From Bacilli bacterium (GTDB taxonomy: Bacteria > Bacillota_I > Bacilli_A > ML615J-28 > CAG-313), in assembly GCA_035362935.1 (NCBI GenBank), contig DAOSEC010000008.1, positions 12,823 through 76,822 on the forward strand: a stretch of 64,000 bases of DNA, in the 5' to 3' direction. Position 1 is the stretch's first letter, and the number at the start of each line of letters is the position of its first letter. The notes under the pieces were generated by a model, which was not told where the DNA came from, searched no databases, and saw only the letters and a list, made by a program, of their open reading frames with translations. Position numbers and translations under genes: made by a program. Positions 43,302-61,963 of this stretch are shown here, one piece after another.

Positions 43302-44684
43302 TTAAAATTCACAATTTTTTGGAGTTCTTGCATAAGGGATGACATCGCGAATGTTTTCAACTCCGGTGACATACATAATGAGGCGTTCAAATCCTAAACC
43401 AAACCCTGCATGTTTACATCCACCATATCTTCTTAGATCTAAATACCAATACATATCTTCTGGTGAGATGTGGAATTCTTTCATACGGTCAATCAACACA
43501 TCAAGACGTTCTTCTCTTTGGGATCCACCGACCAACTCTCCTGCTCCAGGAACAAGTAAGTCCATCGCTGCTACTGTTTTTTGGTCGTCGTTTAATCTCA
43601 TATAAAATGCCTTGATTTCTTTTGGCCAATTGATCACAAACACAGGGGATTTAAAATGAACGTCCGTTAAATACTTTTCGTGCTCTGTTGCTAAGTCCTC
43701 ACCCATTTTCGGTTCATTCTCAAACTTCACTTTTGATTGTTGTAAGATTTTAATCGCATCAGCATATTCACATTTTGTAACCTTTGATTGAATCAAGTCT
43801 TCTAATTGTTTGAGTTTTCCAGGACTTACAAACTTATCAAAAAACTCCATCTCTTCTTTGGCGTTATTTAATATATATGTAACGACATATTTGACCATGT
43901 CTTCGGCAAGTTGCATGTCATCGTTTAAATCCGCAAAACTTATTTCTGGTTCGATCATCCAAAACTCAGACGCATGTCTTGTTGTGTTTGAGTTTTCTGC
44001 ACGAAATGTTGGGCCAAACGTATACACATTTTTAAATGCTAGCGCAAATGTTTCTGCTTCTAGTTGACCAGATACCGTGAGGTTTGTCATTTTTCCAAAG
44101 AAATCTTTTGAATAATCCACTTCACCACTTTTCGCAATTCGCTCTAAATCAAGTGTGGTAACTTGGAACATTTGTCCTGCCCCTTCAGCATCGCTTGCTG
44201 TAATGATTGGTGCGTGAACATATATGAACTCTCTTTTATTAAAAAATTCATGAATCGCAAATGCCAATAAACTACGAACACGGAACACTGCACTAAATAA
44301 ATTTGTTCTTGGTCTTAAATGAGCCTTTTCTCTTAAAAACTCTCGCGAATGTTTTTTTGGTTGAATCGGATAATCTTCCGGACTATCTCCTTCTAAAACG
44401 ATTTTTGTTGCGTGAAGTTCTACTGGTTGTTTCATGTGTGGAGTTGCTTTGACAACTCCTTGCACTGTGATGCTTGCACCTACTCTAAACTTTCTAATTT
44501 CTTCAAAGTTTTCTACCTTTGTATCGTAGACAATCTGAAGATTTTCAAAGAATGATCCATCGTTTAAATTGATGAAACCGAATTCTTTTTGATCGCGATT
44601 GGTTCGAATCCACCCTTGTACTGTGACATGTTGCCCATCAAGACCACTTGGTGTTCTGAATAATTGTTTTACATTTACTAACAT
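43302..44684 (-). CDS. asnS: asparagine--tRNA ligase
   Basis: 460 aa. Class II aaRS with an N-terminal OB anticodon-binding domain and a catalytic core (…[12 protein letters not shown]…). Confidence 0.85.
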
Positions 44685-44697
44685 ATGCTTCTCCTCC

Positions 44698-44946
44698 TAA
44701 AGAAAAAGTCCTTAGAGTTCACTCTAAGGACGAAAATTCGCGGTACCACCTTAGTTCACAAATGTCTTTGTGCACTTTCATCTTTGTTAACGCTAAAGTA
44801 GCGGTTAGTTCTACTAATTCATTTGGAAATGAAGGTTCTTCTAACGACTCCAGACTGTTCTTCAATAAACCATATATCCCAAGTTCTCACTATCCTTAGG
44901 TCACTTTACCATAGCGGATTTATTTACTCATGTCCTTCAAAGTCTT
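44698..44946 (-). ncRNA. T-box riboswitch leader of asnS
   Basis: On the minus strand the T-box motif is AACUAAGGUGGUACCGCGAA (revcomp of 44737-44756). Immediately after it comes the terminator GUCCUUAGAG-UGAAC-CUCUAAGGAC plus UUUUUCUUU. AAC triplets are present in the putative specifier region. Confidence 0.75.
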
Positions 44947-44953
44947 TGGTAAG

Positions 44954-55413: not shown

Positions 55414-56346
55414 TTAATATGTTGGTAAAGTAGTGACAGGAAACTTATAGAAAAATGTCTCACTTTGTCCATTGGTGAATGTTATCTTTAATTCAAAATA
55501 TAAGTCAGTAGGATTATAGTCGATGCGAAGATCCCCGTTAAAGGTTGCAAGTGCTTTTAGTAAGGATCCTCTATACTCTACATATTTCAATGTGTTAGTA
55601 ATGTTTTCATTTGTGTCACTTTCGTGATTTTCAATCATCATAAATCCAACAAGAGAGATGGAATTTACTTCTTGATTTGTTTTCGGGCTTATGATTAACT
55701 GAACTCTTCTGGTTGTGGATGAAGTTAATCTTGTTCGTAGTGTCATTGAGATATAGTCATTGCTAATAACTCCACTTGTTGTTTGACTTGGGGTGGTATA
55801 TTGTGAAGTTGTTTGAGTTAACTCCTGCTTTAAATTGACTTTAATTTTTAATTCTTTTTCTGTTTTCTCAGAGTTGTTTTCTATGACTTCGTATATTACC
55901 TTTATATACACTGTTTTTGGTGTTTCATTTGGAGTGTTGTTGATTGTTTTTCTGAGCACGTTTGGTTTCCAGTTCGTAACTGTATTTGTGTTTTGTGGTA
56001 CATCTTCTTTAAAAAGATGTTTTCCCTCTGTGGTAACAATGGTATAGTACACAATAGTGCGATTTATTTCGATTTGGTCTTTTGCGTTAATTACAGTATA
56101 AAAACTATAGTAAGCAATCTCGTTTGCTCCCGACAATGATCTTGTTTCATTCACTCGAAAATTCACATGAATATCGTTGTTTTCATAAATTTCTTTGAAC
56201 TCTTTGTAAGGGTTGTTTGCGTTCTCAACTAAACTAACTATCCCGAATGTGATAAGACCAAGAATGATTGTGATAAATAAAAATAAAAATGTTTTTGTAG
56301 TTTTGTTCAGTTTGTTGATTGTCTCGATAATTGTCATTTCATTCAC
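55414..56346 (-). CDS. hypothetical N-terminally anchored T/N-rich protein inserted between rpmH and dnaA
   Basis: 310 aa. One N-terminal TM. Thr/Asn/Gln-rich extracellular part. No family recognised. Confidence 0.5.
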   Translation of the reverse strand: MNEMTIIETINKLNKTTKTFLFLFITIILGLITFGIVSLVENANNPYKEFKEIYENNDIHVNFRVNETRSLSGANEIAYYSFYTVINAKDQIEINRTIVYYTIVTTEGKHLFKEDVPQNTNTVTNWKPNVLRKTINNTPNETPKTVYIKVIYEVIENNSEKTEKELKIKVNLKQELTQTTSQYTTPSQTTSGVISNDYISMTLRTRLTSSTTRRVQLIISPKTNQEVNSISLVGFMMIENHESDTNENITNTLKYVEYRGSLLKALATFNGDLRIDYNPTDLYFELKITFTNGQSETFFYKFPVTTLPTY

Positions 56347-56573: not shown

Positions 56574-57980
56574 ATGAGGTCAGGAAAAGAGTTGTGGGAT
56601 TTAGTAAAAAATCAGTTAAAGTTAGAGATGGCTTCGACAGATTTTTCTGAAATTTTCGATCCAATAACTGAAATACATAAAATACACAACAAATATATTT
56701 TTTTAATTGTTCCAGATATTTTAACAAAATTTCGTATTGAAAAATTCTATTTGGATACAATGAATAAGTTATTAGTGCAAATTGAAGAAGATAAACACAA
56801 CTTTAAATTAATAACAAGAGAAGTCGCTGACAAAGAAAACTCAGACAACCAAAAGCTTGGTTTAACAAGTGTGGACTCAGTAGACAGACAAGTCAGTAAA
56901 CGAAACCTAAGGAGTGAGTATACATTCGACAATTTTGTTACCGGTGAGTCGAACCGTTTTGCATGGATGAATGCAATCAAGGTTGCAGAGAGCCCTCATG
57001 TAACAGTCAATCCTCTTTACATCTTTGGGGATGTTGGTCTAGGGAAAACACATTTGATGATGGCAATTGGACACTACATATTAGATAACAACATCCACGC
57101 TAACGTTGTTTATACTACCGCTCAACAATTTGCTGAAGATTACTTTTTAGCAACCAACAAAAAAAACATTAACGATATTGAGAAGTTTTACAATTATCAT
57201 CGAGCAGCTGATATTTTACTAGTTGATGATATTCAATTTTTAAGTGGCAAGAACTCTACACAAGAAGAATTCTTTAAAGTGTTTGAACATTTATTTGAAA
57301 CAAACAAGCAAATTGTTATTACATCAGATAGAGCAGCAAGTGATTTAGAGAATATGATGGCAAGACTTAAGTCAAGGTTTGCATGGGGAATGCTCGTAGA
57401 TATTAAAAGCCCCGATCTAAACCTAAGAATATCTATCTTGAAAAGAAAATTAGCATTCTTGATTCCAAATCCAATAGATGTTCCTAATAATGTATTGGAG
57501 TTTATTGCAACAACATTTGATCAAAATGTAAGAGATTTAGAAGGTGCTTTAAGAAGATTTGTGTCTTTTTGTGTTTCGTTTAATTTGCCTTTTACATTAG
57601 AAAGTGCAAAGCAATCATTAGAAGGAATCACACCTAAAAACAAATTGGATTCATTTGTAACAAACGATACCAATATTGATAAAATAAAACAAACAGTTGC
57701 ATCTTATTATAAAATAACTGTTTCTGACTTAGAATCAACAAGTAGAAAACAACACATAACATATCCAAGACAAGTTGCGATATATTTGATTCGGTCACGC
57801 TATGACATTCCTCTAAAAAAGATTGGTGAGTTTTTTGGAAACAGAGATCATGCTACAATATCACACTCTTATGATAAAATTATTAACGATATTAATTCGA
57901 ATTTACAAATCAAAAATGACATTAACATTATAGAGTCTAAAATCGAGGAAAGTTTAAAGAAAAAAGAAAAAAATAATTAA
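56574..57980 (+). CDS. dnaA: chromosomal replication initiator DnaA
   Basis: 468 aa. AAA+ (GDVGLGKTHL) and a C-terminal DnaA-box binding domain. Confidence 0.95.
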   Translation: MRSGKELWDLVKNQLKLEMASTDFSEIFDPITEIHKIHNKYIFLIVPDILTKFRIEKFYLDTMNKLLVQIEEDKHNFKLITREVADKENSDNQKLGLTSVDSVDRQVSKRNLRSEYTFDNFVTGESNRFAWMNAIKVAESPHVTVNPLYIFGDVGLGKTHLMMAIGHYILDNNIHANVVYTTAQQFAEDYFLATNKKNINDIEKFYNYHRAADILLVDDIQFLSGKNSTQEEFFKVFEHLFETNKQIVITSDRAASDLENMMARLKSRFAWGMLVDIKSPDLNLRISILKRKLAFLIPNPIDVPNNVLEFIATTFDQNVRDLEGALRRFVSFCVSFNLPFTLESAKQSLEGITPKNKLDSFVTNDTNIDKIKQTVASYYKITVSDLESTSRKQHITYPRQVAIYLIRSRYDIPLKKIGEFFGNRDHATISHSYDKIINDINSNLQIKNDINIIESKIEESLKKKEKNN

Positions 57981-58117: not shown

Positions 58118-59242
58118 ATGAAATTTACTATTAATCGAGATTTATTACTTTCAGAATTAAATCATGTGTCGAAAGGGTTGTCTACAAAAACTCCTATGCC
58201 AATACTAACTGGTATAAAAATTGCTGTAGAAATGGATGGATTAACGCTAACAACCTCAAACACTGAAATATCCATTCAAGTTAAGATTCCAAAGTCACAA
58301 TACCTAACTATAGAAGAAGTTGGTGAGTGTGTTGTTCCTGGTAAATACTTTTTAGAGATTATTCGTAAGATTGATGCTAGAGACGTTGACTTCGCAATTT
58401 TCGAAGAAAATATGATTAAGATTCTTGCAGACAGGTCAAACTTTACATTGATTGGATTAGATAAGGATGATTATCCATTGATTAATTTTAACGATTCTTC
58501 TGAAAATGTTGTTCTTGATGGAAACACTTTAAAACAAATAATCAAACAAACTTCATTTGCTACAGGTGTTAGTGAAACTAGAATTATACTAACAGGGATT
58601 TCGTTTGTAATAAATGAAAATCGCCTGACCGCAACTGCAACAGATAGTTTTAGATTGGCGAAAAAAACAATTAAGTTACCTAAAAATTATGAGAAAATTA
58701 GCGTTGTTGTTCCTTCAAAAGCATTAGATGATTTGAATAAAATCATCGATGATGCAGACGAAAAAGTTTATGTTCACCTTATGAATAATAAAGTTTTATT
58801 TAAATATAAAAACATTTCATTCCTAACTCGACTTATTGAAGGTACTTACCCAGACACATCAAGTTTAATTCCAAAAGAATTCTTTACAGATTTGAAATTT
58901 AATAAGCAAGAGCTTATTTCAGCGATTGATCGTGCAGCTTTATTCACTGTGTTGGATGCTGCAAACATAGTTAAATTGACTTTAAAGAGCGATAAAGTGG
59001 TCGAAATTGCTTCTAATTCTAACGAAATCGGAAAAGTCGTAGAAGAAGTTTATCCAACAGAGTGTAGTGTGTTAAAACCGTTCCAAATCGCGTTTAGTTC
59101 AAAATACTTCTTAGATGCTATAAAATCGTTCGATTCAAATGAAATTACAATCCATTTTACAGGAGAAATTAAACCTTTTGTTGTAAGTGGAGAATATGAT
59201 CCAAATTTAACCCAATTAATCCTTCCAGTAAGGGTTTCATAG
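58118..59242 (+). CDS. dnaN: DNA polymerase III beta sliding clamp
   Basis: 374 aa with the three-domain beta-clamp pattern. Follows dnaA. Confidence 0.9.
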   Translation: MKFTINRDLLLSELNHVSKGLSTKTPMPILTGIKIAVEMDGLTLTTSNTEISIQVKIPKSQYLTIEEVGECVVPGKYFLEIIRKIDARDVDFAIFEENMIKILADRSNFTLIGLDKDDYPLINFNDSSENVVLDGNTLKQIIKQTSFATGVSETRIILTGISFVINENRLTATATDSFRLAKKTIKLPKNYEKISVVVPSKALDDLNKIIDDADEKVYVHLMNNKVLFKYKNISFLTRLIEGTYPDTSSLIPKEFFTDLKFNKQELISAIDRAALFTVLDAANIVKLTLKSDKVVEIASNSNEIGKVVEEVYPTECSVLKPFQIAFSSKYFLDAIKSFDSNEITIHFTGEIKPFVVSGEYDPNLTQLILPVRVS

Positions 59243-59299: not shown

Positions 59300-60085
59300 T
59301 TATAACGAAAACTCGCTGAAAATCTCTCTCATCTCTTCTTCCATTTGATCTCTGTTCTTTTGGTGAAAATTTGACGACATTTGGTAGTTATCAAAGATAC
59401 TAATACCTTCACTTTGTAAATTCTGAATTACAGACTTTTCACTGATTGGAGTAATCACTTTTGCACTTGGGGTATACTTCTTAGCAGACTCCACCAAATT
59501 GTTTAAATATTTGTTCGGAGCAATCTTAACTTTGTGGTATCCAGTGGGTACAATATAGTTGATTTTTGTCACATCGATATCAGAATCAACAAAATATTGA
59601 ATTGTACTTAAATATCCATCCATTCCTAAACTATCTAAGCCTACCACAATAATAATATCATCACTTATGTCCAACAAAACTTCTGTCAAACGACTACTTG
59701 AAGGTGGAAAATCGATAAAAATATAGTCAAAGAAACGCTTAAAACTATTCATTATGTCCTTTAAACGCTTTTCTTGTGATCTTTCTAAGGTCAATCTCAT
59801 CGAAAGTTTGTCTGTATTTAAGGTTTTAATTAAATACATATTTATTCTTGCCTCAAAAACCACATCTTTGGGCTCTATTAACCCCGCCAACAAGTGTTCT
59901 AAGTAATTAGAGTCGTTATTGTAGATTTGATCCTCTACTCCAAAGATTTTGAACACACTATTTTGATCATCTGCACTGATTACCAACACTGTTTTCCCTT
60001 GGAGTGCATAGTAGTGAGCTAAGTAACCAATGAAGGTTGTTTTACCAACACCACCCTTTTTGCAAAAGGTTGATACAATTGCCAT
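59300..60085 (-). CDS. small ParA-family partition ATPase (type Ib-like, no N-terminal HTH)
   Basis: 261 aa. Deviant Walker A KGGVGKTT at residues 9-16. Opposite strand to all neighbouring origin genes. Confidence 0.8.
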   Translation of the reverse strand: MAIVSTFCKKGGVGKTTFIGYLAHYYALQGKTVLVISADDQNSVFKIFGVEDQIYNNDSNYLEHLLAGLIEPKDVVFEARINMYLIKTLNTDKLSMRLTLERSQEKRLKDIMNSFKRFFDYIFIDFPPSSSRLTEVLLDISDDIIIVVGLDSLGMDGYLSTIQYFVDSDIDVTKINYIVPTGYHKVKIAPNKYLNNLVESAKKYTPSAKVITPISEKSVIQNLQSEGISIFDNYQMSSNFHQKNRDQMEEEMREIFSEFSL

Positions 60086-60086
60086 A

Positions 60087-60344
60087 CTACTTTACTCCTT
60101 CCCTTGTTAATTTCTCTTTACATGCTTCCTCAATGAACTCTGAAAACATCATTCCACTCATTGCGCAAGCTATTTTGATTCTTTTTCTCAGTGTTGGATC
60201 CATAGTAGCAGTATATTTGTCTCTTTCGGGGGTTTTAACCTGCTCGATTGGTGCTGGTTTTGCCACAGGTGCTACAAATTCTTGCTTTTCTGGAGATACA
60301 CCCGCTCTTTCAAACGGATTTGTACGTTTTTTAATTTGATTCAT
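60087..60344 (-). CDS. ribbon-helix-helix protein (ParG/omega-like putative centromere-binding partner/regulator)
   Basis: 85 aa. Unstructured N-terminal tail. The C-terminus KYTATMDPTLRKRIKIACAMSGMMFSEFIEEACKEKL follows a beta-alpha-alpha RHH pattern. Strong RBS AGAGGAGG. Lies 1 nt upstream of parA. Confidence 0.6.
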   Translation of the reverse strand: MNQIKKRTNPFERAGVSPEKQEFVAPVAKPAPIEQVKTPERDKYTATMDPTLRKRIKIACAMSGMMFSEFIEEACKEKLTREGVK

Positions 60345-60371
60345 ATCATAACCTCCTCTTTTTCACCCGAA

Positions 60372-60380
60372 ATTATAGCA
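60372..60380 (-). promoter_or_regulatory. extended -10 promoter (TGcTATAAT) driving the RHH-parA operon
   Basis: Revcomp is gtTGcTATAATt, about 25 nt upstream of the RBS. An identical 12-mer recurs at 60636-60647. Confidence 0.5.
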
Positions 60381-60637
60381 CAACAACCTAAAAAGCACAA
60401 GTACTTATTTTAGTATTTACCAATATACATACATATGTAAATAAGTATATAAGGTAAAAAAGCAATTTTCGAAGTTTGACACCACAAACACATTGTCTTT
60501 CAGATCAAAACCATGCTTTTGCATCAAAACACAAAATCGCACAGGAATACAACAAAGTCAACACCTGAAGACCTGAGGGAATCCAAAAATCAGCTTCAAA
60601 TTTTAGTTTAAATCGATTTTCCAAAGTTGAATGAAAA

Positions 60638-60646
60638 ATTATAGCA
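60638..60646 (-). promoter_or_regulatory. second copy of the same extended -10 element (TGcTATAAT), 266 bp further upstream
   Basis: The 12-mer aaattatagcac occurs at both 60370-60381 and 60636-60647. Confidence 0.35.
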
Positions 60647-60888
60647 CCCCCACCCTCGTAAATCGTCAAAAACGAAATTATGGTGATGACACAACACTCA
60701 CAGTGGAGAAGCTAAACCGAGCCAGCAACACCTCAAGACCGATCGATAGAATTTAAAAACCACAACTTAAAAACCACCCACAAATACGTAAAAACATAAA
60801 TAAATAAAAAAGTAAATACCAAAAAACACGGAACACTTAATGCAAACAGATGCCTTAACCTGGTCAAAAAAACGAAAAAATCTAAAAA

Positions 60889-61074
60889 TTAATTTGAACA
60901 ACAAACAAAAACGCACAAAAACCAAGCCAATAAATTTGAAGTTCAAACAAAAAGAGCCAAATCAATTTTGAAATTCAAATAAAAAAACCATAAAAAAGCA
61001 GATTTTACTTTTAAGTTCAAATAAAAAAGCTAGGTTTTCGGATGAGTTGCCTGATTAAAGGTTTTAACTTCAAA
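60889..61074. repeat. array of about four ~24-bp direct repeats, each carrying a TTTGAA-N-TTCAAA palindrome (iteron/centromere-like)
   Basis: tttgaaGttcaaa (60935-60947) and tttgaaAttcaaa (60967-60979) are perfect palindromes. Degenerate copies lie at 61010-61021 and 61063-61074. Each is followed by (a/c)AAAAAG. Further TTTGA-tat-TCAAA at 61427-61439. Confidence 0.55.
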
Positions 61075-61462
61075 CTAAAGAGACAGCATAAAGTGCGTTG
61101 AGTCGTTGAATCGAATCATAATGGAACGTTGTTGTTTGGTTCTGGGTATGTGCTTCAATCAATAACAGGACTCGCTGTCTAATAACGATCTGCACTGAAA
61201 TCAACATCATTCGACTTTGAATATCTCTTAGAGACCCAACGTAAGGTTTGAAACAGTAAAAAACACACCACTTTACACATAAACACAAAAAAGTAAATAC
61301 ATAAAAACGTATATAAGTAAAAATAATCGCAATATTTAATAAAATTAAGTATAAACGTAAAAGAGTAAATAAGTAAATACATAAAAACACAAAAAAAGTC
61401 AACCAGATCTTGTTTTTGGTGCATAGTTTGATATTCAAACAACACAAAAAACATCAATTATG

Positions 61463-61497
61463 ACGTGGTTTTCGCATAAAAAACCACTCTTTTTATA
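61463..61497 (+). terminator. plus-strand rho-independent terminator at the end of the A+C-rich block
   Basis: gtggtttt-cgcata-aaaaccac followed by tcttttta. It is not needed by dnaN, which has its own terminator, so it would terminate a plus-strand transcript of the non-coding block. Confidence 0.5.
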
Positions 61498-61696
61498 AAA
61501 ATTCTTTATAAACACTCTTTTATGTATAATATATAATAAGGACAATCGTTTTAAATAGAAAAATTATGATTAAAAAGGGATTGCTTGTTAATATCAAGCA
61601 AGTTTTAATAATTTGATAGGAAATAATCAAAAAACAAATTAAAAAACATAAACTTTCAAAAAACTTAAAAAATCACTGGTGTTTTTTGATTTTTTA

Positions 61697-61705
61697 TGTT
61701 ATAAT
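61697..61705 (+). promoter_or_regulatory. extended -10 promoter (TGtTATAAT) for yaaA-recF
   Basis: 27 nt upstream of the yaaA ATG. The RBS AAAGAGG lies 8 nt before the ATG. Confidence 0.5.
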
Positions 61706-61732
61706 AAATTAACGAATAAAGAGGTCCAAAAT

Positions 61733-61963
61733 ATGAAAAAAATTAACATAAAAACAGAGTTTATAACACTTGGACAACTACTTAAAATACTTGATATAGT
61801 TTCAAGCGGTGGAGAAGCGAAATTTTACATAAAAGAGCATAAAATATTTGTAAATGGCACTCTAGAAGATAGAAGAGGGCGAAAACTCAGAAAGGGAGAT
61901 TTAGTGGTTTTATCTGACCTAAAAATCTTAATTGATGATCAAAATGATGATTCAAAACATTAA
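61733..61963 (+). CDS. yaaA: S4-domain RNA-binding protein YaaA
   Basis: 76 aa. S4-like (…GEAKFYIKEHKIFVNGTLEDRRGRKLRKGDLV…). Canonical position between dnaN and recF. Confidence 0.8.
   Translation: MKKINIKTEFITLGQLLKILDIVSSGGEAKFYIKEHKIFVNGTLEDRRGRKLRKGDLVVLSDLKILIDDQNDDSKH

Follow-up and report, generated by a model that had tools for sequence, protein, structure and literature searches.

What does more than a kilobase of DNA without credible genes do beside the replication origin of a bacterial chromosome? The question is raised by a 64,000-nucleotide stretch from a Bacilli bacterium (contig DAOSEC010000008.1 of assembly GCA_035362935.1), here called the window, in which the interval between dnaN and yaaA holds two minus-strand genes, parA and a gene for a probable ribbon-helix-helix (RHH) protein, and then a 1388-bp gap (60345-61732). 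An earlier note on this DNA had proposed that most of the gap (60345-61500, hereafter the block) was a centromere, an iteron array, or a former plasmid origin for the ParA/RHH pair. Our analysis favors the first of these: the block is probably a DNA element, namely, the operator and centromere of an origin-proximal, type-Ib-like partition cassette (RHH plus ParA). The centromere reading is favored because the locus and its long gap are conserved, because arrays of boxes in the register typical of RHH proteins extend from the promoter, and because palindromes are helically phased. The iteron and origin parts of the earlier proposal are unsupported.

The end of the window is a classical Firmicute origin region, with the turn of the cumulative GC skew at ∼55 to 56 kb and DnaA boxes clustered at 56.0 to 56.5 kb. 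The genes around the gap are as follows.

56574-57980, plus strand: dnaA.
58118-59242, plus strand: dnaN.
59300-60085, minus strand: ParA-family ATPase of 261 amino acids (aa) (Pfam AAA_31, E=7e-24, and CbiA; PHROG ParA-like partition protein, E=2e-28).
60087-60344, minus strand: RHH protein of 85 aa, assigned by family alignment and by profile and fold searches.
61733-61963, plus strand: yaaA, with recF and gyrB next, both on the plus strand.

The gap spans the distance from the start of the RHH gene to the start of yaaA. The earlier description of the block as noncoding was borne out: two minus-strand open reading frames (ORFs) at 61070-61447 and 61179-61457 are real, but neither has a match in Pfam or PHROG.

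For comparison, we used 8 loci that match the window exactly, another 8 drawn from divergent homologues, and 80 genomes at the species level, and gap measurements were made on 62 distinct orthologous gaps. ParA relatives number in the hundreds at 55 to 70% identity. The cassette lies beside the chromosomal replication origin in at least 80 species-level genomes, nearly all of them uncultured Bacilli or Acholeplasma-like metagenome-assembled genomes (MAGs) carrying labels such as Acholeplasmataceae, Acholeplasmatales, “Bacilli bacterium,” “uncultured Mollicutes,” Staphylococcus sp. CAG:324, and Coprobacillus sp. CAG:698. A Bacilli-type locus is also filed under Prevotella, Acutalibacteraceae, or Bacteroidales MAGs (L026, L043, L065, L067, L070, and L082), probably through binning or labeling errors. 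The synteny is directly seen: all related loci with readable flanks have the order dnaA-dnaN-<parA-<RHH-gap-yaaA-recF, and mean identity to the window copy is 61% for ParA, 54% for DnaA, and 55% for DnaN (ParA and DnaA over 81 loci). As the gene order is the same and ParA is as conserved as DnaA, the cassette appears to be a long-standing chromosomal feature and no recent insertion. The gaps of the relatives are ORF free, ∼80% A+T, and richer in A than in T on the strand corresponding to the plus strand of the window, and their length is mostly 1.25 to 1.45 kb (range, 0.7 to 2.9 kb). Their primary sequence is unalignable between distant species, a global alignment matching the promoter ends alone, and an E-INS-i alignment of 30 gaps from the subclade of the window was needed to reveal a common architecture.

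Two motifs recur in the gaps, the box TACRTA/TAYGTA in the whole clade and the palindrome TTTKAnnnTMAAA in the subclade of the window only, and their register and phasing can be read directly from the sequences. ATACATA/TATGTAT is enriched 15-fold in the 62 gaps, positions around the box repeat with a period of 8, and the core box occurs at 10.6/kb, compared to 0.82/kb in the flanking 8 to 10 kb. The distance between successive boxes is 8 bp in 297 cases, followed in frequency by 16, 24, 32, and 40 bp, and inverted pairs such as TACATAAATATGTA are common. In one relative (L081), a 1.9-kb span holds ∼15 copies of the triplet ATACATAAATACATAAATATGTATA (->-><-), and the longest gaps (2.6 to 2.9 kb) contain 54 to 61 core boxes. 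The boxes begin at the RHH-parA promoter, and their density in the relatives peaks in the 10% of the gap adjoining the RHH gene. For the distal half of the clade, the box is the only enriched motif (20- to 36-fold, in 25 to 30 of 31 species). The pattern of a type Ib array, i.e., direct and inverted short repeats upstream of the operon, is present at the level of sequence.

Within the window itself, arrays of at least four phased units are confined to the block: five were observed there and none elsewhere in the 64 kb, compared to an expectation of 0.003 from shuffles of the block, and its repeats therefore exceed chance. Stretches with at least four phased units, degenerate but specific, lie at 60398-60451, 60781-60818, and 61290-61323. 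The arrays are as follows.

60398-60451, no strand: box array A, seven units in 8-bp register, adjoining the promoter; proposed operator and proximal centromere.
60781-60822, no strand: box array B, five units, holding the first AAGTAAATAC copy; conserved in the near relatives L097 and L099.
61290-61323, no strand: box array C, four to five units; conserved in L097 and L099.
61346-61388, no strand: box array D, ∼6 degenerate units, read from the sequence in 8-bp register; conserved in L097 and L099.

Array D (units TAAGTA, AACGTA, GAGTAA, TAAGTA, and TACATA) falls under the strict threshold used for the array count. Three copies of a AAGTAAATAC..AAAAAC repeat, reported earlier, were found at 60806, 61287, and 61367 (families D1/D2), and these AAGTAAATAC repeats are pieces of the box arrays in 8-bp register.

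The palindromes of the block had also been noticed earlier, as TTTGAANTTCAAA. With at most one mismatch, this sequence has five matches, at 60935, 60967, 61009, 61062, and 61427, all within 60935-61439 and nowhere else in the window, in the whole of which ∼1.85 would be expected. They form two features.

60893-61074, no strand: five TTTKAnnnTMAAA palindromes, at 60893 (degenerate), 60935, 60967, 61009, and 61062 (spacings of 42, 32, 42, and 53 bp), with an A-tract after each; same positions conserved in L097 and L099.
61427-61439, no strand: isolated distal palindrome TTTGATATTCAAA; same relative position occupied in most of the subclade.

Near relatives carry the palindrome where the window does, as TTTGAnnnTCAAA and then yAAAAA, and the form in the wider subclade is TTTTAAnTTAAAA. 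Gaps of the subclade carry 5 to 10 palindromes in the central 300 bp and one more ∼250 to 400 bp beyond. In 26 species the spacings between neighbors peak at 21, 32, 42 to 43, 53, 64, 74, and 85 bp, which corresponds to a period of 10.7 to 10.8 bp (best, 10.8; vector strength, 0.52). A-tracts are periodic too, at 10.6 to 10.8 bp in the center of the gap and ∼10 bp near the promoter. Phasing at the helical repeat of DNA points to a function of the double-stranded molecule, through sites on one face, curvature, or both. Since the palindromes are missing from the distal half of the clade, they appear to be an added layer and not the core of the system.

Family features of both proteins, also directly observed, are consistent with partition. 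The ParA has a deviant Walker A motif, KKGGVGKT (FCKKGGVGKTT, residues 7 to 17), and is without an N-terminal DNA-binding domain; it has the features of a type Ib ATPase, being a small Walker-type protein with KGGxxK[ST] and no N-terminal helix-turn-helix, covered by AAA_31 and CbiA. It scores under the cut-off of every curated NCBIfam model and is at most ∼30% identical to the plasmid ParAs of PLSDB, and PADLOC gave only a P-loop-level match for ParA and the RHH protein. Members of the RHH family share an N terminus MNQIKKRxNPF(D/E), a variable low-complexity linker, and (R/K)(D/E)KYT(S/A)TM..LR..IKI.CA..G.MFSEFIEEACREKL, and the window copy, with a KYTATM beta strand and two helices, has an overall layout like that of omega and ParG. 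The family profile matches the RHH protein SvtR (2kel) at E=4e-6, 7 of 30 family members match Pfam Omega_Repress, and an AlphaFold2 model has two confident C-terminal helices (C-terminal domain pLDDT, ∼90). The KYT(S/A)TM strand, which is predicted to read the DNA, is nearly invariant across the family, which fits a box motif common to the whole clade. A set of 1.84 billion proteins yielded 74 representative clusters of this small family, and the RHH protein is absent from PLSDB (tblastn) and IMG/VR (scan). The features of ParABS systems were not found: in place of a CTP-dependent, helix-turn-helix ParB, the parA neighbor is an 85-aa RHH-like protein without a ParB domain, and the 16-bp parS (TGTTNCACGTGAAACA) has no match with two or fewer mismatches in the window.

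A further observation concerns the variable residue of the strand. Among 62 loci, those with KYTSTM have fewer TACATA boxes and relatively more boxes of the TAAGTA type than those with KYTATM (31% versus 14%). The Ser/Ala difference and the box variant may represent covariation of protein and site, but the comparison is confounded by phylogeny.

We infer from these sequences that RHH dimers would bind boxes of the TACRTA type, one per 8-bp unit, in direct and inverted orientation. The promoter-side cluster would repress, and so autoregulate, the RHH-parA operon, and the clusters over the remaining kilobase would assemble a large partition complex. Through its basic N-terminal tail, which is conserved, the RHH protein would stimulate the ATPase activity of nucleoid-bound ParA-ATP, and newly replicated origins would thereby be pulled apart. 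The cassette lies ∼2.3 kb from the dnaA-dnaN DnaA-box cluster of oriC, a location that would suit an origin centromere. Since RHH binders are not known to spread, a large complex would need many specific sites, which could account for 1 to 3 kb here versus ∼0.1 to 0.2 kb in plasmids. In the subclade of the window, the central phased palindromes and A-tracts probably bend the DNA or bind a second factor. Going beyond the window, we suggest, as an idea that we hold to be somewhat short of an even chance, that a clade of genome-reduced uncultured Bacilli segregates its origin by a plasmid-type ParA and an RHH protein instead of ParB/parS, with a kilobase centromere of two interleaved motif classes because the RHH protein cannot spread, and with phased palindromes that recruit a second, architectural factor.

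Several points weigh against the centromere reading. First, its case comes mainly from the relatives and not from the window, where the core boxes are few and degenerate (7, or 5.0/kb, versus 0.93/kb in the flanks). Second, the scores behind the RHH assignment are weak in both sequence and fold: the window protein matches Pfam RHH_10 at E=3e-4, under the cut-off, and the best Foldseek matches of the model, although RHH type in 8 of 8 cases and including ParG (1p94), are not significant (E>1). Third, the gene order, RHH and then parA, reverses that of parF-parG. Fourth, the palindromes are absent in the distal half of the clade and have no assigned binder, and the P values attached to them (Rayleigh p ∼3e-20 for the period) overstate independence, the species being related. 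Finally, the checks for parS and soj-spo0J cover the 64-kb window, and ParB or parS may lie elsewhere in these genomes.

Alternatively, the block could be regulatory only, with the RHH protein as a transcription factor on the divergent RHH-parA and yaaA-recF-gyrBA operons and ParA acting outside segregation, e.g., in DnaA control like Soj or in the positioning of other cargo. We consider this unlikely, though likelier than the other alternatives. Further features of the gap are as follows.

60352-60381, minus strand: ribosome-binding site (GAGGAGG) and extended -10 (GTGCTATAATTT) of the RHH-parA operon, read from sequence.
60636-60660, minus strand: second copy of AAATTATAGCAC, then a C-run (CCCCCACCC); conserved in L097 and L099.
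61524-61549, no strand: E1, TATATAATAAGGA.., strongly conserved, upstream of the yaaA promoter.
61602-61636, no strand: E2, GTTTTAATAATTTGATAGGAAATAATC.. (GTCAATTTTTTnATAGGAAAAAATCG, A/T inverted repeat), strongly conserved, upstream of the yaaA promoter.

The boxes overlap the RHH-parA promoter, at which CCTCCT, ATTATAnCA, and CAAG are conserved in a 30-species consensus. At the other end, upstream of the yaaA promoter, E1 contains a box pair; in most species this pair comes after TATATAATAAGGA, and E1 and E2 are both present in ∼27 species of the subclade. These two elements may be a second RHH-controlled promoter, or the site of another protein, for the yaaA-recF-gyrBA operon. Among solved structures, moreover, the ParA is by sequence closest to McdA and Soj. 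Against a purely regulatory role, an operator needs no 20 to 60 boxes spread across 1 to 3 kb, and partition cassettes are characterized by just this combination, a ParA and an RHH protein whose basic N-terminal tail is conserved (PMC3130281, PMC8682754).

The 12-mer AAATTATAGCAC is duplicated, as previously described, at 60370 and 60636, 266 bp apart, and the region 60636-60660 is a possible second minus-strand promoter or insulator. The second copy is the better conserved of the two in near relatives, and in the wider subclade a CCCC.GGGGG hairpin island replaces it at the same position. An island of a -10 plus a C-run occurs in only 4 of the 62 gaps, and the second promoter copy is therefore no clade-wide feature.

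It is highly improbable that the block encodes a long noncoding RNA (ncRNA), whether A/C rich from the plus strand and ending at 61465-61497 or G/U rich from the minus strand. The earlier note had suggested a ∼1-kb plus-strand transcript with its own terminator, and two features bear on it.

61465-61497, plus strand: terminator-like hairpin (61465-61487) and T run; lineage specific.
61075-61285, no strand: spacer without motifs and with a more balanced composition; conservation poor even in near relatives.

The clean hairpin is present as described, gap length is conserved, and strand asymmetry is strong, an excess of A over T being common to the relatives. The asymmetry had been put as a plus strand almost devoid of G and T. 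The skew itself is real, 60345-61044 being 66.3% A+C, the highest of all 700-nucleotide stretches in the window (mean, 48.6%; standard deviation, 3.8%), but this wording was overstated, since T makes up 22 to 28%; the skew is weaker in 61045-61500 (57.7% A+C), and its C>G half is specific to the lineage of the window, the gaps of relatives having only A>T in common. The terminator is missing from nearly all of the 62 gaps, those of the closest relatives, L097 and L099, included. At the gathering score Rfam gave no match to the block, a search at E up to 10 gave nothing but noise, and primary sequence is unalignable. RNA folding was unremarkable against shuffles for 61075-61275 (z-scores of +1.15 for the plus strand and +0.44 for the minus strand) and not significant for the plus strand of 60640-61500 (-1.34). 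The 10.7-bp spacing of the palindromes corresponds to the helical pitch of DNA, as would be expected of a constraint on double-stranded DNA and not on RNA. With the terminator unconserved and the folding unremarkable, the transcript proposed earlier is unsupported.

A role in replication, as a second part of oriC or as the iterons of an integrated plasmid origin, is about as improbable as an RNA. The block is AT rich, carries repeats and phased A-tracts, adjoins dnaA-dnaN, and is paired with a par-like operon, all of which would suit such an element. DnaA boxes, however, are depleted in the block and in all of the gaps (0.59/kb in the gaps versus 9.6/kb in the DNA upstream of dnaA and 10.4/kb between dnaA and dnaN), and the block has no rep-like ORF. 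The syntenic locus looks vertically inherited, with a ParA as conserved as DnaA, and searches of PLSDB, phage records, and IMG/VR, among them blastn of the block against plasmids and phages, brought up nothing similar in plasmids, phages, or viral contigs. The suggestion of iterons or a former plasmid origin is unsupported on these grounds. Least probable of all is a reading as decayed pseudogene or as neutral, AT-rich spacer, the repeats being low-complexity noise. The block is indeed very AT rich and fast evolving in primary sequence, and its own boxes are degenerate. Across the clade, however, the gaps keep their length and architecture, motifs are enriched 13- to 36-fold in strict register, and no ORF of the block matches any protein family, so that the comparative data already largely refute this view.

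The features listed by the earlier note were all found, either exactly in place or off by 1 to 2 bases; they include the CGTTGA direct repeats (61097-61111). Elsewhere in the origin region, the rpmH-dnaA interval, normally a tight junction, has an unusual insertion on the minus strand (55414-56346), a gene whose ∼310-aa product has an N-terminal transmembrane helix and lacks a Pfam match, and a gene of 307 to 359 aa without a Pfam match occupies the same position in L001, L009, L011, and L013. The canonical Firmicute cluster gidA-gidB-noc-soj-spo0J is missing from the origin side (36000-56500 of the window), where rpmH-rnpA-yidC-jag are followed by a hypothetical gene and genes for RmuC, an RDD protein, MnmE, a GHL10 protein, and an asparaginyl/aspartyl-type tRNA synthetase. 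An ordinary T-box leader (44723-44949, minus strand; 113.9 bits) lies upstream of a class II aminoacyl-tRNA synthetase gene (43302-44684).

We found no description of this locus in the literature. Its parts are of known kinds; what would be new is the chromosomal, origin-adjacent setting, the conservation across a clade, and the proposed kilobase centromere with two motifs. If the centromere reading is correct, the locus would be a natural exception to the ParB rule, in which a helix-turn-helix ParB spreads from parS, and would show how a binder that does not spread builds a partition complex on the scale of a chromosome. Many MAGs of gut, rumen, and digester have this “empty” region of 1 to 3 kb, to which annotators could now give a name. 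The idea is directly testable, with a protein of only 85 aa, defined sites, and dozens of natural variants of the array.

Among known systems, Soj/Spo0J/parS likewise has a ParA-family ATPase and an origin-proximal location, and its presumed role is likewise the segregation of origins. In the present locus, by contrast, the partner is an RHH protein and not a helix-turn-helix ParB, there is no parS in 64 kb, and soj-spo0J is missing from its usual place left of jag/mnmE. According to reviews, every centromere-binding protein known from bacterial chromosomes is a helix-turn-helix ParB (PMC5002424; see also PMC7022226).

The closest parallels are found in plasmids. In ParF-ParG-parH of TP228, ParG binds 4+4-bp units of the operator OF and of the centromere parH, which consist of 4-bp boxes and 4-bp AT-rich spacers in an operator array plus a distal array (PMC3130281). 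As is proposed for the window, a small Walker ParA is combined with an RHH protein with a flexible N-terminal tail, and boxes with an 8-bp period, direct and inverted, form an operator array at the promoter and a distal array (PMC3130281). TP228, however, is a plasmid, whose ∼20 boxes occupy far less DNA (∼100 bp for parH alone), whereas the locus described here is chromosomal and origin adjacent, uses a 6-mer box (TACRTA) in many clusters over 1 to 3 kb, and has the RHH gene first; past the shared fold class, there is no detectable sequence similarity to ParF or ParG. In delta/omega/parS of pSM19035, as proposed here, an RHH repressor is also the centromere binder and acts on contiguous short repeats in the arrangement ->-><-; omega binds heptads in this arrangement, and activation of the ATPase needs at least four contiguous repeats (PMC9499535). 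The plasmid system differs in its 7-bp heptads, its three separate promoter regions, and the location of delta and omega in different operons, compared to an 8-bp register and one very long region on a chromosome in the present case.

RHH centromere-binding proteins do not spread extensively, and archaeal SegAB combines, on a chromosome, a ParA-like ATPase with a site-specific RHH binder whose unstructured N terminus activates the ATPase and whose sites lie upstream of the operon (PMC8682754). The present cassette is similar in its chromosomal ParA-like ATPase and RHH protein and in the proposed sites upstream of the operon, but SegAB is archaeal, SegB is described as archaea specific, and SegAB has two palindromic sites rather than a kilobase array. 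No sequence match to SegB was obtained in PDB searches with the proteins of the cassette. Should the clade indeed use ParA and an RHH protein instead of ParB/parS, archaeal SegAB would gain its first bacterial counterpart, and the centromere reading would link plasmid type Ib systems to SegAB.

Multiple palindrome-bearing or helically phased repeats that nucleate a higher-order complex are also a feature of F sopC and R1 parC, in which uniform tandem repeat units are carried on plasmids. Unlike these, the gaps interleave two motif classes, and the palindrome spacing varies in whole helical turns. Type Ib bacterial systems are usually those of plasmids or other mobile elements, whereas the system proposed here occupies one fixed place on the chromosome, between dnaN and yaaA, wherever the flanks of a related locus could be read.

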